A DNA stretch of 64,000 nucleotides from a virus, in the IMG/VR virus record IMGVR_UViG_3300024999_000057, positions 38,670 to 102,669 of that record; one strand, given 5' to 3'. The notes below the pieces were generated by a model, which saw nothing but the letters and a program-made list of their open reading frames with translations, was not told the DNA's origin and did no database searches. Shown piece by piece: positions 6,614-64,000 of this stretch. Numbering within the stretch: the stretch's first letter is position 1; every line of letters starts with the position of its first letter. Position numbers and translations under genes: made by a program.

Positions 6614-7185
6614 ATCCCGAACTTATAAAAACCTGTGCGGTCCTCTGCGACCAAAGCTATTCAGATGTGAATCCAAATTTCGTCACTGTGGACGATTTAA
6701 GGTACGGGGTTTTTGAAACAGAGCACGGAAAAATAATCTGCATCCGGGGAACGGACAATCTGGAGAATTGGGGCGTGAACGCGAATGTTTTGCCCGCGAA
6801 GTCTTGTGGTGGTTTTCTAGCCCACAAGGGGTTCATAAAAGCCTACCGAGAACTCTGCTCGGGTGGGATGCCTACGACCAAAAATCCTTCCGTCATAGCA
6901 ACTGGGCATTCTCTTGGAGGCGCCCTGGCAACTCTGCTAGCAGAGCACACAGGGTGCAAATTAATTACTTTTGGATCACCAAGAGTTTATTGGAGATTTG
7001 GAAAAGCGCCTAAATTGGATTACATCAGGATAGTAAGAGACGACGATCCGGTTCCAGAAGTTCCCAAGTTCCTCTACAGGCACACCCAGGAACCTCTTGT
7101 ATTGAAAGACGGTGACCACAGGCATTTGCAAGTCAAGGATCATTTTATGAAGTCGTACCTTGAGGCTTTAAAGGAGTTAAAATGA
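6610..7185 (+). CDS. class 3 lipase (alpha/beta hydrolase)
   Basis: IRGTD, AHKGF, TGHSLGGALA nucleophile elbow, TFGSPRV, DDPVPEVP, terminal DHF. Confidence 0.9.
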   Translation: MNPELIKTCAVLCDQSYSDVNPNFVTVDDLRYGVFETEHGKIICIRGTDNLENWGVNANVLPAKSCGGFLAHKGFIKAYRELCSGGMPTTKNPSVIATGHSLGGALATLLAEHTGCKLITFGSPRVYWRFGKAPKLDYIRIVRDDDPVPEVPKFLYRHTQEPLVLKDGDHRHLQVKDHFMKSYLEALKELK

Positions 7186-7367
7186 AAGCGGGATTGAAGA
7201 AGAGAATTGTTGGGCACAAGTTGTCCTCCATTTTGGGAGTGGTAGGCGGGGCTGCGTTGGCGGGTGCTTCTGGTTATTATCAGGCGTCGGGTGGTTCTAT
7301 GGCAGACTGGAAGCCGTATGCAGTTGCGGCTGGGGTTTCTGTGGTAGGGCTGCTGTACAAGAAATAA
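7182..7367 (+). CDS. holin-like two-TM protein
   Basis: 61 aa, two hydrophobic segments, basic termini, last gene of the lysis cassette. Confidence 0.5.
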   Translation: MKAGLKKRIVGHKLSSILGVVGGAALAGASGYYQASGGSMADWKPYAVAAGVSVVGLLYKK

Positions 7368-7394
7368 AAAGTTCCTTCCTCCAAGGGGAACGAG

Positions 7395-7429
7395 AAAGGG
7401 CTCCTGGGTTGGTTACCAGGAGCCCTTTT
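7395..7429. terminator. bidirectional terminator at the +/- strand convergence
   Basis: AAAGGGCTCCTGG / CCAGGAGCCCTTT 13-bp stem between convergent gene blocks. Confidence 0.85.
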
Positions 7430-7441
7430 GGTTTTAGCGTT

Positions 7442-7609
7442 CTACATCCTCTCGTTGATTGCTTGCTGGATATAATCCAGGGTCGCTGCAATTAGCAGTT
7501 CGTTTGTCTCGGCGTCTCTGAGATCCGCGTAGATGATCCCTTGCCTTGTATCTTTTCCTCTTCGGAGGTTGGTGATTATGAGTTGGCGATTTTGGAGGTC
7601 TTTTGTCAT
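7442..7609 (-). CDS. hypothetical protein (55 aa, not in ORF track)
   Basis: MTKDLQNRQLIITNLRRG...; start abuts the nrdG stop. Confidence 0.5.
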   Translation of the reverse strand: MTKDLQNRQLIITNLRRGKDTRQGIIYADLRDAETNELLIAATLDYIQQAINERM

Positions 7610-8062
7610 TCAGAAGTCAACTCCCTTCTTGAAAATGTGTTGGTTGGTGGAAGCCAATTTAATCCCGTACTGTTCTTTCTCGCCCCTCAGGTTCTCCTCG
7701 TACCGACCGCACTTGAGGTAGGCCAAATATCGCTTAGCGAACTCTGGGACTTCCAAAGGCTTCAACCGGGTGAAGAGCCAGATATCCAAGCAGTGCCGGT
7801 CTAGGTACCACAGGAAGGTTTCGAGTTCTTCGTGGTCCTGATCGAAGGGTTCTCCTCCGAAGATCATGATGTTCTCGATGAGATCCGGGAATCTAGCAAC
7901 CTTGTCGTTGATTTGCAGCAAGGACTCCTTCCAGTCAACTCCCTGATTAAAATCCCAGCTTTCCGGATTGTGGCAGTTTTCACAATGAGGGCCTTTGCAC
8001 CCAGCCAAGTAAATATCTAGGCTTCTTGTTTCCAACGAGAACTGAGTTGTTAGGACGTTCAT
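7610..8062 (-). CDS. nrdG: anaerobic ribonucleotide reductase activating protein (radical SAM)
   Basis: GCKGPHCENCHNPESW Cys motif, GGEPF; adjacent to nrdD. Confidence 0.9.
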   Translation of the reverse strand: MNVLTTQFSLETRSLDIYLAGCKGPHCENCHNPESWDFNQGVDWKESLLQINDKVARFPDLIENIMIFGGEPFDQDHEELETFLWYLDRHCLDIWLFTRLKPLEVPEFAKRYLAYLKCGRYEENLRGEKEQYGIKLASTNQHIFKKGVDF

Positions 8063-8063
8063 T

Positions 8064-9962
8064 CTATATCCCTGAGTAAAATTGCCTGTGGGGGAAATCC
8101 TGCTCGCGCCTAACTTTGTGCCATGATTTAACCGAGGTCAGGAAACCCACAACGCGGGTCAGCTTGTCCACAATTTCTCCTCCGCATTCCGAGCAGGTCT
8201 CCGAGATCCCCACGGTCATGTGGCCGTTCTCGCATTTGTTCAGTAGGAAGTTGATCGCGAAGTAGATGACCCCAGCTTTAGCTGCAGCCTTAATCAAATC
8301 CACCACCAGCTTGGGATCTTCGATCTTCTGCTCCACGTTCAGGTGGCAGATGGAGCCCCCAGAGAAGTGCTTGTCGAAAAGCCCTTGGAGCATTATGCGA
8401 TCCAACAGGTCCGCCTCGACCGTAAGGGGGATAAACTGGTTGCTGTAGAGGTCGTAGCGACTATTGAACCCCAGCAACCGGTCCTTCTCCGCGAGCTTCA
8501 CCGAAACATTTTCTCCAGGGATCTGCTCGCAATTGTGGGGCGACTTGAGTTTCTTCTGCCACCTGTCGTTCTCGGAGTTGATCGTGTTCAGGATTGCCAG
8601 CACGAAATCCTGCCCGTCTCTGGTCATTATGTCATAGCCCATGATCTCACAGGCTTCGTTCAGGCCGTTAACCCCGCAGGTCGAGTATTGCTTGTTGAGG
8701 TCCATGAACCCATGAGAGTAAAGCGGGAGGTTCCCGTTCTCGATTCTCTTCTTGACGATGTGCCTTTTCGTGTTGTTGATTCGGGAGCACGTCCCAACTA
8801 ACCGCTCTACCTCGGAGAAGAATTTCTCGGGGTCCTTTTTATACCGGAAGGCCAGCTTCGGCATGTTGATGGTGACTACACCGAGCGAGCCGATTTTGCT
8901 GGAGCCAGAACCGAAGGAGTTGAAGTACTCGTTGTCGGTCTCGCTGCGGAGGCGGCAGCACGAACTGAGCGTTGACGATTTCCCGGTGTAGATGTTGATG
9001 AAGCCGAATTCGAGGTTCCTCTCCGCGACCTGGTTGAGGAAGGTCTCGTCGTGGATTTCTCCTGAATCATCTACTGCGAAGCACGCAGTCGTTACCGGGA
9101 ACGTAATGGCGGTTCTTCGCATTTCGGTGTTCATGACATCGAGGAAAAGCATCTGCAGCTTTTTCACGATCTCGATGTCTGGAGTGGTGCCGTCAGGGAA
9201 AACGTAGTTCGGACAGAGGCTCCCCAAGAATTCCTCGTCGTAAACCGAGACATTCGTGAAGGGGCTCTGGGATGCCCTGAGCGGCTGATTGACGGTGTAG
9301 ATGAAGGACACGAGATTCTCCTTCACATAACGCCAGCAATCCTCTTCGCTCGCGAAGCTGAAGTTAGCGTCCATCTTGGTTGCCAAGATGTTCTTGACGT
9401 AGTAGCTCATGACGATCAGGAGATCCGCAAGTCCTGCTGCTCCCAGCGTCGAATTGCTGGCGAGCACGACGAACTGCTCCAGTTGCGACTTGAAGCTGTA
9501 GAGGTACTTGGGAGGCACCGAGGTGATTTTGCTGATCATCGGGAGCCCGAGAAGCATCACGTCGTAGGTCGAGTAGTTGAAGCAGTAGGCTTGGGACGAT
9601 CCGATACCATGAACGTCATTCACGTAGATGTCCCCGCAGACCTGCATCTCGATAACCTCGTCAGATGTCTCCTTCCCGTAGAGCTTCTTGAAGTGCTTCC
9701 ACAGCATGTAGTAGGAATTCAGCTTAAGGAATGGCTTGGGCAACTCCGCGTTGTAGACGATGATGCTCATGTCGCCCAAGTTGGAGTTGGCGTCTATCGA
9801 GACATCAGCCGTAGTTTTAGCTGCGAAGAAATCCTTGGAGAACTTGGGGAGGTCGAGTTGCTTCCCGATCCCATCCATATCGAAAAGCTTTTGTGGATAC
9901 TTGGATTTGAGGAGATCCATCAATTCTTCGAACTGAGGGTCGTAACTGAAGAAGATATTCAT
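8064..9962 (-). CDS. nrdD: anaerobic (class III) ribonucleoside-triphosphate reductase
   Basis: QSPFTN, SSCCRL, GSLGVVTIN, EQIPGE, C-terminal CxxC and TRVVGFL glycyl-radical motif; no ATP cone. Confidence 0.95.
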   Translation of the reverse strand: MNIFFSYDPQFEELMDLLKSKYPQKLFDMDGIGKQLDLPKFSKDFFAAKTTADVSIDANSNLGDMSIIVYNAELPKPFLKLNSYYMLWKHFKKLYGKETSDEVIEMQVCGDIYVNDVHGIGSSQAYCFNYSTYDVMLLGLPMISKITSVPPKYLYSFKSQLEQFVVLASNSTLGAAGLADLLIVMSYYVKNILATKMDANFSFASEEDCWRYVKENLVSFIYTVNQPLRASQSPFTNVSVYDEEFLGSLCPNYVFPDGTTPDIEIVKKLQMLFLDVMNTEMRRTAITFPVTTACFAVDDSGEIHDETFLNQVAERNLEFGFINIYTGKSSTLSSCCRLRSETDNEYFNSFGSGSSKIGSLGVVTINMPKLAFRYKKDPEKFFSEVERLVGTCSRINNTKRHIVKKRIENGNLPLYSHGFMDLNKQYSTCGVNGLNEACEIMGYDIMTRDGQDFVLAILNTINSENDRWQKKLKSPHNCEQIPGENVSVKLAEKDRLLGFNSRYDLYSNQFIPLTVEADLLDRIMLQGLFDKHFSGGSICHLNVEQKIEDPKLVVDLIKAAAKAGVIYFAINFLLNKCENGHMTVGISETCSECGGEIVDKLTRVVGFLTSVKSWHKVRREQDFPHRQFYSGI

Positions 9963-25719: not shown

Positions 25720-25748
25720 ATTCTAATTCATTTCTGACTTTTTGTCAA
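25720..25748 (-). promoter_or_regulatory. sigma70 promoter TTGACA-17-TAGAAT with operator-like sites in the spacer, at +1 and upstream
   Basis: -35 at 25743-25748, -10 at 25720-25725; palindromes at 25708, 25726, 25756. Confidence 0.85.
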
Positions 25749-25780
25749 GATAAAAATTCACTTGTGAATACTTTCTGGTG

Positions 25781-25810
25781 AAAAGAGGAGCCTCCCGAAG
25801 AAGGCCCCTC
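25781..25810 (-). terminator. intrinsic terminator
   Basis: GAGGGGCCTTC-TTCG-GGAGGCTCCTC-TTTT. Confidence 0.85.
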
Positions 25811-25823
25811 AACCACAGTTCTG

Positions 25824-25852
25824 ACAATAATCTACTTCGGCCTAAATGTCAA
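25824..25852 (-). promoter_or_regulatory. sigma70 promoter TTGACA-17-TATTGT
   Basis: Same upstream context (operator + TTTTATC) as the 25748 and 54151 promoters. Confidence 0.65.
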
Positions 25853-25876
25853 GATAAAAAATTCACATCTGAATAT

Positions 25877-26971
25877 TTATTTGACGATCATCAGTTTTTC
25901 TGAAGCACGGGTATAGGCCGTATAGCGCCAGCGCCTGTGCATCTCCTCATCGTTCCCGAAAAGTTCCTCGAAGACCATAATCTTCGGCGCCTCTGAGCCC
26001 TGAAATTTGTGGCACGTTAAAGCGTAGCCGAAGTCGAATTGCTCAATGCCTCGCTGGTAATAAACCTGCCCACCCAAGAAAACCTGATCGTCGATGTCCA
26101 GGCACTCGTAGTGAATTCCATCGTCGTTCGTGAAGTCCAGATATTTTCCAATCGAGTCGTAGGACCCGCATGTCCCGAGCATCCCATTCACGAGTCCCAT
26201 CTCGTTATTATTTTTCAGGCAGATGAGCTTGTCGCCGGGTGCAGGGAGATCACCTTTAAATCCGAGTAATCCCCTGATTTCCTCGTTTAATTTCCTCCTA
26301 GTATTGTTGAACCCGCAGATCACTTGGTCAGCACTAAGCAAAAATTCATCAGCAACGCGGAACCACGGGATTACGAAGCACGTATCACCATGCCTCCCGT
26401 ACCCGATGTCCTCCCCAATCCGGATCGAATGAGCCAGGCGAATAATCGGGTTGTCCATCGCCTGGCGGTGGATCGTCTCTAGGCGATAATCCGGGTTGAG
26501 CATCAGGTTCGCCTGATCCTTGGACACAGGGGGAAGCTGAAAATGATCCCCGATGTAAAGTACCGGAATCCCGTAGCTTTCCAGATCCAACTTGATCGTG
26601 CCGCTCACCATTGAGGATTCGTCGCAGATGATCAGCTTGACCTTTTCAAGTTCCACGAAAGCCCTTCTGCAAAACGTGACCTTCCCTTGGTCATCAATTC
26701 GGGGCCGGTAGATCAACCCGTGGATCGTCGTAGCTGGGAGCCCCTTCTTCCTGAGGACCATCGCCGCTTTGCCTGTGTAGGCGACATATTTTATGTCCTG
26801 CTCTTCTAATTTCAGATCATCGACGATGAAATTCACGATGGTCGTCTTGCCGGTGCCTGCGTAGCCACCTAAAACGAAGGTGGTTTTGATTGTCGAGTCG
26901 ATTGAGTTGAACCAATCTTTAATCGCTTTGACAGCGCCAGCTTGCTCGTCGGTTAGGGTTATTTGTGCCAA
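25877..26971 (-). CDS. SF1B (Dda/RecD-like) DNA helicase
   Basis: GYAGTGKTT, DESSMV, GDHFQLPPV, HRQA, YALTCHKFQGSE, YTAYTRA. Confidence 0.9.
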   Translation of the reverse strand: MAQITLTDEQAGAVKAIKDWFNSIDSTIKTTFVLGGYAGTGKTTIVNFIVDDLKLEEQDIKYVAYTGKAAMVLRKKGLPATTIHGLIYRPRIDDQGKVTFCRRAFVELEKVKLIICDESSMVSGTIKLDLESYGIPVLYIGDHFQLPPVSKDQANLMLNPDYRLETIHRQAMDNPIIRLAHSIRIGEDIGYGRHGDTCFVIPWFRVADEFLLSADQVICGFNNTRRKLNEEIRGLLGFKGDLPAPGDKLICLKNNNEMGLVNGMLGTCGSYDSIGKYLDFTNDDGIHYECLDIDDQVFLGGQVYYQRGIEQFDFGYALTCHKFQGSEAPKIMVFEELFGNDEEMHRRWRYTAYTRASEKLMIVK

Positions 26972-38063: not shown

Positions 38064-39467
38064 TCATGTGGCCTCCGCTTCTACTTCCTCTGTATCAACC
38101 ACTCCGGTGTCCTTTACGATGCCCTCTAAAATCTTGAAATCTAGCGTCTTGTTCTTGAAGATTTTCATGGAGCCGGTTTCGAGATTATCGACTCGGACGC
38201 ACACGCCTTCTCTGATATGGCTCTGGTCGATAGGATCTGCGATGTCCACTTTGTCAGTCAAAATTTCCACCCAATCCTTCAAGGCAACCACGTTATCCTC
38301 AGTTCGGACCAGTCGGGTTCGACACCAATCCGCCGCTTTTACCTCAGGCACATGTTTCACCCCAGCTTTCCTGCAGCGCTCCTTCACAACTCCCCAAGGC
38401 ATCTCCAGCATCCCGCCGTCTTCACCCATCAGGGCGATCCGGTAGACGTAGATCTCGCACTCGGCAGGCAAGCAGCCGTACTTGTAGGTCATGGTCTTAC
38501 CAAAGCGCTTCACGAAATCCTTACCCATCTTCAAGCAATCGACGGTGCTCATGATCGGCCTGCCTGATTCCTCGAAGCCTACGATCTCGTAGTACCAGAC
38601 CTCATTCTGCTTGAGGTGAGGCGCAAGCCGTTGGTGGCACTTCTCGCGGAAGTCCTTATCGACCTCATTGACTTCGCCTCGGACCTCGCCCTTGATCACC
38701 CTCCGCGTGCCGTAGACCGACTTCCAGATTTCGTAGGAAGGCCTTTCACGAAGTTGCTCCTTCTTCAGGTCCGACAGGAAGAAGTTGAAGAGGTGCTTCT
38801 CGGGACCGAAGAATGCGTCAGCGAATGCGAAGTAAAGTTCCTCACGCCATTTCAGCGGGCGCTCTTCTTTGACCCTCAGCTTCGAACTTCTGCCCGAGGT
38901 GCCGTGTAATTTAGCCGTCAGCGTCACCAGGCCCATCAACTCGTCAGGCCTTGCGTGCCTGAGTTGGTCGGTTTCGAGGTGCTCAGGGAACATCCTCTTC
39001 AATGACTCGTTCAGCTTGGGTGTTTTCGGCTTGTTTGCTGCGGCTGCTCTCTTGGTAGCCTCGGTCACGAACTTGTTGCAGATCGAGATTCCACCCAGTT
39101 CTACGAACTTGGTCCCGACTTCCAGCTTCTTCAGGTCGTAACCCGTGAAGGCCAGTGAGTGCAGCCCGATCACGAAAGCCTCCGACTTCTCGCCACGAAA
39201 CTTCTGAGCACGGACCCTGCGACTCGCATCGAAGTAGCCGCCTTTCCTCTCTCCGGTCTCTGGGTCCGTGTAGCCAACCAAATCGTTGGCCTTAGCGAAC
39301 ACCTCGGAGATCTGCCCGTCATCCGGGAACAGCACCACGACTTCGCCTTCCTTGGCCTCAAGGCCTACGATCACCTGGTAGCCGAGGCACGTAGCCACGT
39401 TCAGGCGATCAGCGTTCGAGTGCTTCCTCACATTTTCCAACTTCGAAATTACTGCGGTATAAGCCAT
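38064..39467 (-). CDS. RNA ligase, DRB0094/Rnl5-like
   Basis: N-terminal HSNADRL OB domain; TAKLHGTS motif I, YYEIVG, REGVCVR, FKNK. Confidence 0.85.
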   Translation of the reverse strand: MAYTAVISKLENVRKHSNADRLNVATCLGYQVIVGLEAKEGEVVVLFPDDGQISEVFAKANDLVGYTDPETGERKGGYFDASRRVRAQKFRGEKSEAFVIGLHSLAFTGYDLKKLEVGTKFVELGGISICNKFVTEATKRAAAANKPKTPKLNESLKRMFPEHLETDQLRHARPDELMGLVTLTAKLHGTSGRSSKLRVKEERPLKWREELYFAFADAFFGPEKHLFNFFLSDLKKEQLRERPSYEIWKSVYGTRRVIKGEVRGEVNEVDKDFREKCHQRLAPHLKQNEVWYYEIVGFEESGRPIMSTVDCLKMGKDFVKRFGKTMTYKYGCLPAECEIYVYRIALMGEDGGMLEMPWGVVKERCRKAGVKHVPEVKAADWCRTRLVRTEDNVVALKDWVEILTDKVDIADPIDQSHIREGVCVRVDNLETGSMKIFKNKTLDFKILEGIVKDTGVVDTEEVEAEAT

Positions 39468-49094: not shown

Positions 49095-51107
49095 TTATTC
49101 CGCCGCTTTAATATTCAGCAGCGGCCTGATGTGGTCGATCACACTCACGGTGACTCCCTCCTGCTTTGCCAGCACGTAATTGATGTCCTTGTAGGCGGCG
49201 GGCGCCTCATCCAGGATTGAGCGGTTGGTGGAGCAGATGATGCCTTGCATCCCGTCCTTGAACTCCTGATAATCCAGCGTCTTCTTCGCTTGGTTCCTTC
49301 CCATGACCCTACCGCAGCCGTGAGATGCCGAGGAGAGATAATAGGACTCGCCCAAGCCTTCCGTGATGTACACGCCATCTCGCATGTTGGCTGGGATCAC
49401 ACCAAGCTGCCCCAGGTCCGCAGGAGTCGCTCCTTTGCGGTGCAGGACGCCCTCAGGAGTTACGACGGCGTGATTGTGGTTCTCGTTGATGACGCGGTTC
49501 GCTAACTGGTTAGGGTGCAGCCCTAGGCATTGTAGCACTTGGGTCATCATCCGCAGCCGATTCTCCAGTGCCCACTCCAGAGCGAAATTCATGTCCTGAA
49601 GATAAGCCTGTCCAAGCTCAGACTCCAGAGGGAACAACCGGCCCTTCTTCATGTACCAACCGCCGATTGTATGGCCTACGTTCCTGGACCCCGAGTGAAT
49701 CGTGACGCAGAGGTTGCCCTTCTGGTTCTCGCCAAGCTCTATGAAATGATTTCCGCCACCTAGCGTTCCGAGTTGGGTGCCAACTTTAGCCTGGACTCGC
49801 TGGTGCGTGTTAACATCCATCACGTCTGAAAACAGCACCCAATCGTAGCCTTGGTCCTTTGTATGTGAGGAGAACCCCGTAGGAATCACCTTCAGGATGT
49901 CGTTGTAGATGCCTCGGAGGGTAGTCACGCTCGCAGCCTTGATGCCTGTGTCTAACGAGCACATTCCACAGTTTCCAGTGATAAAAATCTTGTTGTTGCG
50001 CCTAGCTACGAAATATCCCGAAGGAACCGTGAAGCAATATTCTTTACCGTCTTGAGACGACACGAAGTTAATCGCCTCGTTTTTGGTTAGTCCCACATAC
50101 TCGTTTTTGGTTTTGTAAACCCACCAAGTTGAGTTCCAATCTTTCCCCTCGTAAGAGTGGCAGTGTATGCCAGTTCTGGCCCCCGCCACCGTAAAGGCAT
50201 ACTGAATTAAATCCGCATTTTGCTTGCAAGTAGCGGAAAAAGCTTCGTGCTCACCCACTGTACCATCCCAATGCAAACATTCTTCTGCAATAATTCTGAG
50301 TTGCGCTTCGCTACTTGCCCAGAAAATAGACAGGTCCTTAGTGACTCGATAGTCCCTGAAGTATATGTAGGTGCTGCCATCCACACCTACGGTTAACTCG
50401 TAATTTATTCCCGCCTGGTTAAGCAGTTCCTGGGCTCTAATTATTTTCCTCTCTTTTCTGAAGTGTAGTTCAGTGGTGCCTTGCTTTCTTATGTGCCCAT
50501 CCGCACTCACCATGACAATTACCCTGAGGATAGCATCAGTCATATCCAAATCAGGATTACTTAATTTGAACGTGGTTTTTATTCCGCCTTGTAGTCCTTT
50601 ACCTAGAGACCTGTGCTTTTCCACTAGTTCTTTAGTTGCATACACTTTGGGCTTATACCCCCGCGACTTGTATCCATGCCAGAACAGCACCTTGTGACCC
50701 GAAGACAGCATTTGATCCATGCCATCCTTGTGCCACAGATGGTAGAAGCCCTCTGATGGTTGCACCACATAACGCTGGGGTACTACAAACGATGCTTCAT
50801 CGGTAGTCGGGTTGTACTGAAGTACCTCGCCACCCCCGTATTCTGAAATTTTAACCCAACCACTAGGAGACAAAAACTCAGTGTCCTTATCAAGGCACCC
50901 GATATCGTATCCGACGAAAGAAGGAGAGATCATCCCCTCTAAAAGAGCGACTCCTCCAATCGGCAGGTCGTAACCTGCATGGACATCCGGCATGATCGCC
51001 AGCTTCTTCAGGCAATCCAATTCCAGTACATCAAAAATCTGCTGCTGAGCAGACTGCTCAATTTCCTCCAGTGGAACCGTCGAGAACAACCTGTTGAGCT
51101 TGCTCAT
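49095..51107 (-). CDS. rtcB: RtcB RNA ligase interrupted by an intein
   Basis: MPDVHAGY, GYDIG|CG, GTLGGGNHFIE, HSGSR, NHNH, HRKGA, SHGCGR, DEAPAAYK. Confidence 0.95.
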   Translation of the reverse strand: MSKLNRLFSTVPLEEIEQSAQQQIFDVLELDCLKKLAIMPDVHAGYDLPIGGVALLEGMISPSFVGYDIGCLDKDTEFLSPSGWVKISEYGGGEVLQYNPTTDEASFVVPQRYVVQPSEGFYHLWHKDGMDQMLSSGHKVLFWHGYKSRGYKPKVYATKELVEKHRSLGKGLQGGIKTTFKLSNPDLDMTDAILRVIVMVSADGHIRKQGTTELHFRKERKIIRAQELLNQAGINYELTVGVDGSTYIYFRDYRVTKDLSIFWASSEAQLRIIAEECLHWDGTVGEHEAFSATCKQNADLIQYAFTVAGARTGIHCHSYEGKDWNSTWWVYKTKNEYVGLTKNEAINFVSSQDGKEYCFTVPSGYFVARRNNKIFITGNCGMCSLDTGIKAASVTTLRGIYNDILKVIPTGFSSHTKDQGYDWVLFSDVMDVNTHQRVQAKVGTQLGTLGGGNHFIELGENQKGNLCVTIHSGSRNVGHTIGGWYMKKGRLFPLESELGQAYLQDMNFALEWALENRLRMMTQVLQCLGLHPNQLANRVINENHNHAVVTPEGVLHRKGATPADLGQLGVIPANMRDGVYITEGLGESYYLSSASHGCGRVMGRNQAKKTLDYQEFKDGMQGIICSTNRSILDEAPAAYKDINYVLAKQEGVTVSVIDHIRPLLNIKAAE
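49971..50897 (-). mobile_element. 309-aa intein with LAGLIDADG homing endonuclease
   Basis: Starts CLDKDTEFLSPSGW, ends YCFTVPSGYFVARRNNKIFITGN before extein Cys; SADG and HWDG blocks. Confidence 0.92.
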
Positions 51108-58128: not shown

Positions 58129-58302
58129 CTAAAAATCCCAGTTCCTCCCAGCATCTTCGTTCAGAACGAAGAGGATTTCCAGCTCCTCCCCACACTCCGG
58201 GCAGTCCTGATCCGCCGAAATGAAGGAGCAATCTGAGGCAAGGACCAGGTTTTTATTAATGGAGTACCAAGAAATCTCGTTGCCGCAGTTAGAGCACTTC
58301 AT
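58129..58302 (-). CDS. small zinc-ribbon protein (not in ORF track)
   Basis: MKCSNCG...CPECG, 57 aa. Confidence 0.55.
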   Translation of the reverse strand: MKCSNCGNEISWYSINKNLVLASDCSFISADQDCPECGEELEILFVLNEDAGRNWDF

Positions 58303-58379
58303 ACAACCCCCTGTTTTGTTTAGGTTCTAGTGTGAGAATTCACATTTCAGAACATTAAAGAATTATAATAAAAAAAGAC

Positions 58380-58475
58380 TTGACAAACTATTAGAAACCG
58401 TGGTATTTTATAAACCGGCGCTAGCCGATGAAGTTATAGGTTTATACCCCTAGTAACTGGGTAGGGATTAGCGAG
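58380..58475 (+). repeat. antisense promoter plus conserved 36-nt element, copy 1
   Basis: TTGACA..TGGTATTTT then GTTTATACCCCTAGTAACTGGGTAGGGATTAGCGAG (58440-58475). Confidence 0.75.
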
Positions 58476-58514
58476 CCTTTTACCAGAATAGTACTTGACT
58501 AATTCGATAAAGAA

Positions 58515-59353
58515 TTAATCCCTCGCTACCGAGTAGCAAACCGATTCCCAGTTGAAGGTTAATTCGAGTTCCATCGCTCCATTCTCCCAGGTCCAGAACT
58601 TGAGTTGGAATCCTCCGATTCCTAGCCGGTTGTACACCAGATGATTTGGAGCCTGGAGGATCTCCTTCAGCCTGGAGAACATCGAGCAGCAAGAGGAGCG
58701 CATCGCGCCGGTCGTAGGAACCTGAGATTCTCCGTTGGGTCCCTGATTCACCCAGGTCCACCTAGTAATCAGCATTAGGGCTCTCACCTTTTCGAAGTCG
58801 AATTTTTCCATGATTTCGGTGAAGGTATTTTCTATGTTTTGGATTTGAGTTGCGTTCATTATTTTAATCGGTTATCGTCCAGGAACCGCAGGAAGCGGTA
58901 TCCAATGTGTAGGTGTCTCGTCGTAGAAAACGCTACCGTGGACCTCGAAGCACTGATCCGGGATGTTCCAGATCATCACGAAAGGCCTCTTCAGGTGAGG
59001 ATCATAGCCGAGGATGTGGCAGTCCTTCGGAGCCGTCTCGATTGGTTGCCAGTTCATTTTTATGCCTCCTCAGCTTTTTTGATAGCCTGCTCGGCGATAA
59101 CCAGCAGGTCCGAAATATCGTTGGTGCTCATCGGGCCGAAAGCCTCCATCCCCAAAAGCCTGGCGTGAAGATCCTTCAGAGCATCCAAGAGAGCAGGAGC
59201 CTGGGAGATTAGGAGGGCGTTGGCCTCGGTTTCTCCAAGGACAAGGTAGGACAAGTTGCGCACCACCGCCACTCCCCGCCCTGCTCCCCATATCGTAGCG
59301 TATTGATTTCCATGCCCTGTTATCTCCCAAGGCCTCTTCGTGTGCTTGCTCAT
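58515..59353 (-). CDS. three accessory genes (58515-58859, 58872-59057 DUF551-like, 59060-59353)
   Basis: WQPIETAPKD...PTHWIPLP; MSKHTKRPW...ANALLISQAPALL phage families. Confidence 0.65.
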
Positions 59354-59396
59354 TTCCTACCTCCAATTATTAGAGAAAAATAATTTAATTTGCCAC

Positions 59397-59490
59397 TTGA
59401 CAAATCCCAAAAGTGTGGTACACTTAAAATCGCCGAAGGCAAAAGAAGATTATAGTTTATACCCCTAGTAGTTGAGTAGGGTTTAGCGAG
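59397..59490 (+). repeat. antisense promoter plus conserved 36-nt element, copy 2
   Basis: TTGACA..TGGTACACT then GTTTATACCCCTAGTAGTTGAGTAGGGTTTAGCGAG (59455-59490), 32/36 identical to copy 1. Confidence 0.75.
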
Positions 59491-59543
59491 GATTTGCTCT
59501 CTACTAAACCCTACTGATTTGGTGTACAATTATTTCCCTGGAT

Positions 59544-60690
59544 TTATCCCGTCACATTTAGGCCGATGAAATCCGGCCTGGATAACTCCTTCAACTTGTC
59601 AGCCACTTCCTTCGTCCCGAACTCATGGGTCCAGACGGGCCGACCGAAAAGCTCCTCGGCGTAAGCGTGCATGGCTGCGAAGCTACCGAGTAGGAATCCG
59701 GTGTAGGCTGAAACGATTGCTGCTTCTCTTTTGGTCATCTTTCAAATCTCCTTTTCCGCATTCTCTGTGGATACATCCAGAAAAGTGAATACACCTTTAG
59801 GTAAATTTTTCATTTTTAGGTCTCCTAGTTGAGCAGGCAAGCCTGCAAGAGTTCAACCAAAATTCTGAGTTGTTCGGGATCGAGGTTCATTCGGAGACCT
59901 CCTTCGGCGGATCAGGAAGGGGCATCCAGTGAGTGACCTCGTTGGTGATGCACCAACCTTCGGAGTCGGTGATGGTCCACGCTGATTCGCAGCCAGGCCA
60001 CACTTCGCAGTATGCCACGCAGATGCTTCCCGACTTTCTGTAGACAAGCACAGGGTAGCTTCGTAATGGCCCATCCCATTCCTGACGTAGTTCAGGCGGT
60101 TCATTAACGGGTTTCCAGTTTGTCTGACTCATTTTATTACTCCTTTCGTGCGTAAACCTCGCCGTCGATCACGACTTGATAGTTTTCGAGCCAGTCAGCC
60201 TCAGCCAGCCCTATCATGGAGGACTTGATTTGCGAGATGCTCGCAATGTGAAACTCCCCTTTGAATGGGAACTGGTTGTACTTACCGGGATCTCCGAGTA
60301 TTTCTACGTAAGCATAATGGTCGGTCATCTCGTCCTCTCCTTTTACCTGAATTTCGAGCGCTACACCACTTTAAATGGCACTTATAGCACAAGTGAATGG
60401 GAATGTATACGTGAATTTTAGTTTGGCCTTTGTAGGGCATCCTCGTTCGTTTCTTCCTCCCAAATCCTCTGCAGGTCGTCATCCTTGTGCCTGATGTACT
60501 CGACACCATGTGTGTTCAAGAGGAGGTTCAAATTATTCATGAGTGCCCTAACGTGTGCTTCCCGGCCTCCTGAGTTGTCGCGGAACCACTCCAGTTCCTT
60601 CCTGATCTGCTTCGCCAGCACATCCGGATCACCTACCTTATTGAGCCAGGTCAGCCGGGTTTTGATCGTTTTGATTGATGGGATGTTCAT
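59544..60690 (-). CDS. small accessory genes (59544-59738, 59887-60132 DUF551-like, 60137-60328, 60418-60690)
   Basis: ORFs with RBSs; VTHWMPLPDPP. Confidence 0.6.
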
Positions 60691-62775: not shown

Positions 62776-63456
62776 TCACTTTCTTCCCATTACCATCTTC
62801 ACGGCTTCATCCGCCAGTTTCCCGAAGTCAATCTCAGGAGCATACGCCGCCGCATACGCCGCCGCCCTCGCCGCATACGCCGCCCTCGCCGCATACGCCG
62901 CATACGCCGCATACGCCGCCGCCCTCGCCGCATACGCCGCCGCCCTCGCCGCATACGCCGCCGCATACGCCGCCGCCCTCGCCGCATACGCCGCCCTCGC
63001 CGCATACGCCACCGAAGGATTCTTCAGATACTCCTTCGCAGCTTCGACAGCTTTCCGAGGCCTGTCGTCTCCAGGCATGACATCCTCGAAGTGGTGCAAA
63101 ACCACCTCAGCACATAGGATAGCGAAGGCGACCCGAACCAGCTGTTCCTTCTCCGATCCTACCCACTTAGGCAACTTCAACTCCTTCACGACTTCCTGGG
63201 TCAAGCTACCTACTTTCCCGAAGTCGTGACAAACTACGGCGCCTTTAATCTCCCAAAGTTTTGGGTTGCTAATATCCGCATGAATCGGGTTAAGGAGGAA
63301 CACCAGGTTCTTGTTCCTGTACGCATGGAGCACGTCGGAGGAACAGAGTCGCGGATTATCCTTTTTAGGCTTGGTGTGGATCTTTTCGACTTCGCCGTAG
63401 GGGTAGCCGTTGTAGGTGGTTCCGTCTTGATTAGTGAGTTTGAATAATTTCTGCAT
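62776..63456 (-). CDS. Imm5-like domain protein with Ala/Tyr/Arg low-complexity repeat
   Basis: LCSSDVLHAY, CAEVVLHHFE...DDRPRKAVEAAK, AAYAAR repeats. Confidence 0.65.
   Translation of the reverse strand: MQKLFKLTNQDGTTYNGYPYGEVEKIHTKPKKDNPRLCSSDVLHAYRNKNLVFLLNPIHADISNPKLWEIKGAVVCHDFGKVGSLTQEVVKELKLPKWVGSEKEQLVRVAFAILCAEVVLHHFEDVMPGDDRPRKAVEAAKEYLKNPSVAYAARAAYAARAAAYAAAYAARAAAYAARAAAYAAYAAYAARAAYAARAAAYAAAYAPEIDFGKLADEAVKMVMGRK
62840..63010. repeat. coding tandem repeat (GCCGCATAC / GCCGCCCTC units)
   Basis: Directly visible 9-12 nt units. Confidence 0.95.
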
Positions 63457-63664: not shown

Positions 63665-64000
63665 TCATATTTCCTGACTAGGCACCCACTCGTAAATAAC
63701 TTCAGCTTTTTCCCCGGCGTGAAGCCTCCAAGTCTTGCCGTCGAAACTTGGTACCACTCCCATCTCCCACAATTTCTGGCAAGGCTCCCAAGGGTTAGGT
63801 CCTAAGTTTTCCACGTATTTCCATTCGGTTATTTCAGGAAAGAACGAGGCAGTATAGGCCCACACCGAGTCCCGCACCGAGTCCCGCACCGAGGCCCCCA
63901 CCGAGTCCCACACCGAGTCCCACACCGAGTCCCACACCGAGTTCCGCACCGAGTCCCACACCGAGTCCCCCACCGAGGCCCACTTTTGGAGTAATTCAAT
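63665..64000 (-). CDS. SVWD/SVRD-repeat protein (partial, 5' end outside the window)
   Basis: Frame open to the window edge; LWEMGVVPSFDGKTWRLHAG C-terminus. Confidence 0.7.
   Translation of the reverse strand: MELLQKWASVGDSVWDSVRNSVWDSVWDSVWDSVGASVRDSVRDSVWAYTASFFPEITEWKYVENLGPNPWEPCQKLWEMGVVPSFDGKTWRLHAGEKAEVIYEWVPSQEI
63859..63983. repeat. 12-nt coding tandem repeat (CCCACACCGAGT)
   Basis: About 10 near-identical units. Confidence 0.95.

Follow-up and report, generated by a model that had tools for sequence, protein, structure and literature searches.

What is the function of a promoter that drives no gene and that is present twice, each time followed by nearly the same short sequence, on the strand opposite to all the genes around it? 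The question arises from a 64-kb stretch of DNA from an uncultured phage (bases 38670-102669 of the 102,669-bp IMG/VR phage contig IMGVR_UViG_3300024999_000057), which we call the window and whose coordinates we use except where contig positions are indicated. Two units are found on its plus strand, each consisting of a sigma-70 promoter with extended -10 element, a small GC hairpin and a 36-nucleotide (nt) core; both are located in non-coding gaps of an early region in which all genes are on the minus strand. An earlier interpretation of the window, made from its letters alone (the sequence-only reading), had pointed out the promoters, the hairpins, a 32/36 match between the cores and an inverted repeat in copy 2, all of which we find in place, and had offered as explanations a pair of small RNAs, face-to-face promoter switches, origin or primer elements, and mimics of CRISPR repeats. 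The gene map bears out its description of the surroundings: exactly three minus-strand genes (58515-58859, 58872-59057, 59060-59353) are bracketed between the copies, and no plus-strand gene follows either one. The pair of small RNAs is the best supported of these explanations, on account of the conserved promoters, a covarying and strand-specific terminator in copy 2, the lack of coding potential, and the presence of both units in four phages. We consider it probable that the two units are real plus-strand small-RNA transcription units, and give even chances to the fuller proposition that they form a paralogous pair of phage small RNAs, antisense to the intercistronic early messenger RNA (mRNA) and sharing a sequence-specific core.

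Anatomy of the two units

The components of the units, all on the plus strand, are as follows.

58380-58484, plus strand: unit 1 overall (promoter with extended -10, GC hairpin, core)
58355-58379, plus strand: A/T-rich tract before the copy 1 promoter, UP-element-like; 85% A+T, nearly invariant in the four phages
58380-58409, plus strand: copy 1 sigma-70 promoter; -35 TTGACA at 58380-58385, spacer 18, TG at 58401-58402, -10 TATTTT at 58404-58409
58416-58427, plus strand: copy 1 5'-proximal GC hairpin; 4-bp stem and 4-nt GCTA loop, identical in the four phages
58440-58475, plus strand: copy 1 36-nt core; internal inverted repeat of 5-6 bp with a variable centre of 7-9 nt
58415-58484, plus strand: predicted RNA 1; start placed from the -10 element, 3' end undefined, with a run of four Ts (58478-58481) that no convincing hairpin precedes
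59397-59525, plus strand: unit 2 overall (promoter with extended -10, GC hairpin, core, terminator)
59373-59396, plus strand: A/T-rich tract before the copy 2 promoter; 80% A+T, nearly identical in G000 and G001
59397-59424, plus strand: copy 2 sigma-70 promoter; -35 TTGACA at 59397-59402, spacer 16, TG at 59416-59417, -10 TACACT at 59419-59424
59432-59440, plus strand: copy 2 5'-proximal GC hairpin; 3-bp stem, loop of 3 nt (GAA), or GCGA in two relatives
59455-59490, plus strand: copy 2 36-nt core; same inverted-repeat layout as in copy 1
59475-59525, plus strand: copy 2 intrinsic terminator; perfect 12-bp stem (59475-59486/59504-59515), small inner stem, T-rich tail at 59516-59525
59431-59522, plus strand: predicted RNA 2, about 85-95 nt, as the span from promoter to terminator

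The two cores differ at only 4 of their 36 positions. By our own arithmetic the number of such matches expected by chance in 64 kb is about 2e-6; an exact 16-mer repeat taken on its own would not be significant. The search for more copies that had been recommended by the sequence-only reading adds none, as the core with at most two mismatches occurs exactly twice in the contig, and the inner inverted repeat occurs nowhere in the contig outside the two cores.

Promoters comparable to these are rare. In a scan of the region from 56 to 64 kb both are among the three best candidates, and they are the only ones with a TG, while the strict pattern of TTGACA plus extended -10 is found at three sites on the two strands of the entire contig, two of which are the promoters in question. 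The 20 nt preceding the -35 are 85% (copy 1) and 80% (copy 2) A+T, the highest values among approximately 13 intergenic sigma-70-like sites of the contig. In the four phages described below, TTGACA, the TG and positions 1, 2 and 6 of the -10 are retained in all eight copies, while the spacers and the middle positions of the -10 vary (for example, the copy 1 box is TATTTT or TATCCT depending on the phage); this is the pattern expected of working sigma-70 promoters. A conserved promoter of its own, as befits an independently transcribed small RNA gene, is thus found in each unit. In addition, a 17-mer from the copy 2 promoter, with an extended -10 (TGnTAnAAT) after it, is found upstream of genes in at least four unrelated groups of IMG/VR phages (L115-L135), and is therefore used as a promoter elsewhere; its recurrence may reflect a shared promoter cassette or convergence on the host consensus.

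Conservation in four phages

Four phages were compared: the window phage, the IMG/VR contig G001, and the metagenome contigs L028 and L030. G001 (82.6 kb; L004, L029) is the one syntenic relative in IMG/VR, at 75-85% nucleotide identity in a protein-guided scan; L028 (2.3 kb) and L030 (39 kb) were added through a scan of metagenomes with the family of the 97-amino-acid (aa) protein encoded between the units. All four contain the two units and no more, with positions and orientation maintained in a syntenic context; a block not conserved in relatives, which was part of what would have refuted the sequence-only reading, is thus not what we observe. A profile built from the eight copies identified nothing further in 807 kb of phage DNA.

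Averaged over pairs of phages, identity is 0.85 in unit 1 and 0.88 in unit 2; for the four flanking genes it lies between 0.61 and 0.85. The units contain no open reading frame common to the four phages, which differ from each other here by insertions or deletions of 1-2 nt, and are to be regarded as non-coding, as a small RNA gene should be. A small peptide or type I toxin encoded in the gaps was rejected for the same lack of a conserved reading frame; in particular, a frame of 59 aa starting with TTG in the window is broken in the relatives. Since the units match or exceed the identity of the flanking genes even though they are free of a conserved reading frame, their conservation is an indication of selection.

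Gene content beside the units differs between the phages. G001 alone carries an extra gene of 101 aa beside copy 1 (L004:4358-4663); the 61-aa gene (58872-59057) is present in the window phage and absent from G001; and in L030 some 870 bp separate the 97-aa gene from copy 2 (L030:2068-2990). This last stretch is flanked by direct repeats of a segment consisting of ribosome-binding site plus promoter, and holds a run of about 27 Gs; it may be an inserted cassette, brought in by recombination at the promoter, or a chimera produced in assembly.

No known RNA family accounts for the units. The Rfam check that had been suggested gave no match at gathering thresholds in the whole window, and with E values up to 10 it gave three chance-level matches (E > 2) between 58250 and 59650, none of them on the promoter, hairpin or core of either unit; the model for C4 antisense RNA did not match even at E up to 10, and scans for tRNA and tmRNA returned nothing.

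The strand and the boundaries of the predicted RNAs

A further indication of the strand on which the units would be read comes from the terminator of copy 2. All 12 pairs of its stem are kept in the four phages, and one of them is changed on both sides, from A-U to G-C, which represents a compensatory double change. The remaining changes affect the loop or bulge, or else the small inner stem, which in G001 has lost one pair and has G-U in place of another. A T-run follows the hairpin on the plus strand only (five Ts in G001, a weaker run in the window); read on the minus strand, the same hairpin is without one. The stems of the 5' hairpins are likewise kept, with the loop of copy 2 shifting from GAA to GCGA in both length and sequence, and in the plus-strand reading these loops are of the stable GNRA or GNNA type. 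The possibility that they mimic an anticodon loop was rejected, as the loop letters are not conserved. Also discarded was a long-range pairing of copy 1 with the 3' end of the 114-aa gene, which appears in the fold of the window: it is not conserved, and is an accident of a gene deletion junction, since in G001 the 101-aa gene separates the two pieces.

The shared core

A comparison of the paralogues shows where the constraint resides. The 28 alignment columns that precede the core differ between the two copies at 9-16 positions, while the 38 columns of the core itself differ at only 5-10, no more than is seen between orthologues. Within the core, the blocks ATACCCC and GTAGGG are invariant in all eight copies, and the 7-9 nt between them vary freely. 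The arms of the core are able to pair (5-6 bp); no compensatory change backs such a local pairing. The stem of the terminator in copy 2 takes up the second block, and the first block is left unpaired. The retention of the core by paralogues whose promoter spacers and hairpins have diverged points to a partner shared by both RNAs that recognises sequence, be it a protein or an RNA target common to the two.

At the 5' edge of the core, 2-3 variant positions are the same in both copies of one genome and differ between genomes, in a comparison that effectively involves three independent genomes. These matched variants could be due to gene conversion between copies 1 kb apart, or to selection for matched sequences. 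We also considered the core as a site-specific recombination site, in the form of an inverted repeat around a centre of 7-9 nt; this was rejected because strand exchange does not agree with centres that vary from copy to copy and from phage to phage.

Proposed mechanism

Starting from the observed anatomy, conservation, covariation, non-coding status and strand asymmetry of the units, the following mechanism can be proposed. Host RNA polymerase would read each unit from a strong sigma-70 promoter, made of the A/T-rich upstream tract, TTGACA and the extended -10, to produce an RNA composed of a short GC hairpin with a stable loop, an A/U-rich linker, and the conserved 36-nt core. RNA 2 (approximately 59431-59522) would end at the intrinsic terminator, in which the 3' third of the core serves as 5' arm, so that the 5' two-thirds of the core would be left single-stranded. 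RNA 1 would start near 58415 and, having no clear terminator, would probably continue until Rho or decay ends the transcript. The pairing partner of both RNAs would be the early mRNA, a polycistronic transcript of the minus strand, at the two gaps between cistrons where the units lie. In the gap of copy 2 the minus strand has no evident promoter or terminator, and thus the early mRNA probably reads through; if so, complementarity to it would be full at each RNA's own locus and about 89% at that of its sister. Such pairing would mark the early mRNA for cleavage or block it, as with OOP of lambda or sar of P22. That antisense pairing with the early mRNA is the main action of the RNAs we propose only tentatively, as somewhat less probable than the contrary.

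The energetics of pairing are in line with this scheme. When both strands of the phage were scanned with RNAduplex, the best targets of the RNAs were their own locus (-56 kcal/mol) and the sister locus (-36 kcal/mol), followed at -26 kcal/mol by sites inside coding regions, whose energies are chance-like in a scan that had no shuffled control. Since only own and sister loci emerged, targets in trans inside the phage were rejected.

Several considerations weigh against the proposal of a small RNA pair. Only four phages are known, two of which are nearly identical in the units, and the covariation consequently rests on few events. An intrinsic terminator on the same strand is present for copy 2 and absent for copy 1, where no recognisable or consistent terminator can be found in any of the four phages. 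The folding energies of the plus-strand RNAs only modestly beat those of shuffled sequences (z-scores of -1.5 and -2.2), and the minus strand of copy 2 folds at a z-score of -4.2, so that energy alone does not pick the strand. A purely cis-antisense role leaves unexplained why the two cores stay alike, which gene conversion could explain. Furthermore, plus-strand transcription, the ends of the RNAs and their target are predictions.

Among well-studied systems, OOP of lambda and sar of P22 are the nearest working models. As in those temperate phages, a short RNA would be expressed here from a constitutive sigma-70 promoter directed against an early operon, would stop, in the case of copy 2, at an intrinsic terminator, and would be fully complementary to the opposing mRNA. 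As the phage encodes an integrase, RNAs with antisense or immunity roles like those of lambda, P22 or P1 are a natural fit. The differences are nevertheless clear: OOP lies across the 3' end of cII and sar across the ribosome-binding site of ant, whereas the units occupy intercistronic gaps and cover no ribosome-binding site; in addition, there are here two paralogues with a common 36-nt core, and no sequence or Rfam similarity to either model. The putL/putR elements of HK022 and nutL/nutR of the lambdoid phages are also paired, paralogous RNA elements located just downstream of early promoters and containing small hairpins, but they precede operons that need antitermination, whereas no plus-strand genes follow the units and copy 2 itself is followed by a terminator.

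The kind of element proposed is thus already known, as a phage antisense or small regulatory RNA, and its less common traits are the occurrence as a paralogous pair and the tight constraint on a shared core. Few phage-encoded small RNAs are understood, and almost none from uncultured phages; the pair, in which the bounds of copy 2 are clear, offers a well-defined case for studying RNA as a possible means of tuning or silencing the early operon in a large temperate phage.

Alternative explanations

An unlikely alternative, which nevertheless accounts for several of the observations, is that the units operate at the level of DNA as face-to-face promoters or operators, with the core as the binding site of a protein from phage or host. 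Read on the minus strand, the core is located just upstream of a -10-like box that has no -35, as in an activator-dependent promoter for the downstream minus-strand genes, which the plus-strand sigma-70 promoter would oppose by occupancy or collision. The part of this idea that stands is the minus-strand TATAAT box, kept in all four copy 2 units; the opposing starts would have about 12 nt in common, and this overlap would coincide exactly with the small hairpin. Core arms that are conserved around a variable centre, with no compensatory changes, are what one would expect of a protein site, and the core of copy 1 is retained with no terminator as its partner. Other parts of the idea do not hold. 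The minus strand has neither a -35 nor a TG; in copy 1 the box is TATAAC in two phages, with loss of the critical last T; the other box named in the sequence-only reading, and named there first, is not conserved and changes to forms without the proper last T; and the distance from core to box varies by 1 nt. Moreover, the genome contains only two such sites and no further half-site pairs, and the T-run on the plus strand only and the covarying 12-bp stem are left unexplained.

A bolder version of the small RNA proposal, improbable as it stands, is that the pair provides a large temperate phage with a device for immunity or attenuation based on RNA, or that the core is a decoy for a defence protein of an unsampled host. 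In the immunity version, constitutive promoters free of operators would express RNAs whose core pairs with the early transcript at two sites, and the recognition letters, changing jointly at both loci between phages, would define immunity types by means of RNAs from the opposite strand. A parallel exists in c4 of P1 and P7 and CI of P4, small phage RNAs with short recognition sequences that are repeated in the genome and change jointly between heteroimmune relatives, just as some core variants here are common to both copies within each phage. Those RNAs arise by processing of the sense transcript and have inverted copies on their own strand as pairing partners, whereas we observe direct repeats and predict antisense RNAs. 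If it is true that the matched core variants reflect selection, the pair would represent a new route to the specificity of RNA-based immunity; if they are not selected, it would be one more antisense regulator of the OOP and sar type.

Slightly less probable still is that the units are a recombination module with no RNA role of their own, that is, homologous intergenic blocks that serve in cassette swaps and are kept alike by gene conversion, in the manner of the PeSL (promoter-stem-loop) motifs of T4-type phages (PMC2839356, PMC4122927). PeSLs likewise consist of a repeated early promoter and stem-loop in the intergenic gaps of a variable region, with gene insertions and deletions adjoining. 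Gain or loss of cassettes beside the units is indeed seen in G001 (the 101-aa gene), L028 (where a 57-aa gene is missing) and L030 (the insertion of about 870 bp), and some core variants are common to both copies within one genome. The L030 insertion, with its long poly-G run, may however be an assembly chimera. PeSLs are reportedly co-oriented with the genes that they flank and present in many copies. In contrast, the promoters described here are antisense to all neighbouring genes, there are just two copies per genome, and a conserved 36-nt core is added; the selective retention of key promoter positions and stem pairs and the asymmetry in terminators would have no explanation in recombination alone.

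It is very unlikely that the core mimics an RNA of host defence, either as a solitary CRISPR repeat of the Racr type or as a ToxI-like pseudo-antitoxin of a type III toxin-antitoxin system, which would titrate Cas or toxin proteins. Mimics of these two kinds have been reported in phages (Camara-Wilpert 2023, Blower 2012). The core has in common with the Racr anti-CRISPR RNAs and with the pseudo-ToxI of phage TE that it stands alone in a phage, has a promoter of its own and combines a length of 36 nt with a small stem-loop, and the sequence-only reading had remarked on a likeness of its minus strand to the end of type I-E repeats. The differences outweigh this likeness. Two scans of 185,579 species genomes, one with the strict core and one with a degenerate version based on the positions invariant in the four copies then known (and still invariant in all eight), revealed no CRISPR-like or ToxI-like array of the core and no tandem matches as in a ToxI-like antitoxin, with the limit that the host may not be sampled; the degenerate scan yielded five single chance sites in unrelated contexts. 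In IMG/VR the core matched nothing beyond the relative G001 and, by chance, one site within a coding region. On the minus strand, the letters that resemble an I-E handle are not the same in all four phages, and the promoter drives the strand opposite to the I-E-like reading, so that the suggestion of a CRISPR-repeat mimic is not supported.

The least credible explanation is that the promoters belong to a replication origin, where their transcripts would melt the duplex or act as primers. Origins that depend on a promoter are known from T4 and T7, and the promoters here lack a downstream gene and adjoin A/T-rich DNA, but the cumulative GC skew declines evenly across this region and does not turn, there are no iterons and no copies beyond the two sites, and a dedicated terminator some 90 nt downstream in copy 2 argues for a discrete RNA.

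The phage and the neighbourhood of the units

The contig has a G+C content of 50% and is estimated to be 91% complete. It encodes DNA polymerase, helicases, ligases, an RtcB-like protein, a portal protein and, to the left of the window (contig 6928-8229, minus strand), a tyrosine integrase, on the basis of which the phage is considered a large temperate one; for the large terminase there is a weak, below-threshold match (E 7e-4). With respect to the closest cultured phages, polymerase, portal and integrase are all at or below approximately 31% identity. Genes are on the plus strand up to about 46 kb (contig position) and almost exclusively on the minus strand beyond that point, a split that is mirrored by the GC skew. 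The early region around the units consists of small minus-strand genes of unassigned function, and searches of Pfam and PHROGs with the neighbouring proteins gave no lead to function. The genes closest to the units are the following.

58129-58302, minus strand: gene downstream of copy 1, 57-aa zinc ribbon; missing in the relative L028
58515-59353, minus strand: the three bracketed genes (114 aa, 61 aa, 97 aa), with no assigned functions; the 61-aa gene is missing in G001
59544-59738, minus strand: gene upstream in minus-strand order, 64 aa, DUF7736; its stop is about 20 nt past the terminator tail of RNA 2

Some minor observations concern other parts of the contig. An RNA ligase (38064-39467) and an RtcB-type ligase fused to a PhoH-like domain (49095-51107) are both encoded by the phage, which suggests an RNA-repair kit directed against host defences that cleave tRNA. 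Four tandem 24-bp repeats are located at the start of the contig (contig 1-96), and minus-strand open reading frames made of tandem repeats of 9-12 nt, for low-complexity proteins, are found at 62822-63028 and 63844-63999, the last one being cut by the end of the contig. A 14-bp palindrome (ATTCA-N4-TGAAT, with at most one mismatch) occurs about 47 times across the whole contig (in the window, for example, at 587, 5335, 13558, 25756, 34050, 39478, 48241, 51124, 53089, 58105 and 61381). It is almost always intergenic, either 0-5 nt ahead of a ribosome-binding site or in or just upstream of sigma-70-type promoters, and it looks like a genome-wide operator or RNA hairpin; there is none within 60 nt of copy 2.

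Promoters and hairpins are closely associated at two other sites of the contig. To the left of the window, near the integrase (contig 8668, minus strand), the spacer of a sigma-70-type promoter is the 5' arm of a terminator-like hairpin. At 25748-25880, also on the minus strand, two sigma-70-type promoters are arranged in tandem. Within about 45 nt downstream of the first (-35 at 25852), and still before the second, there is a GC-rich hairpin with a T-run, an arrangement that could be a tiny RNA or an attenuator.

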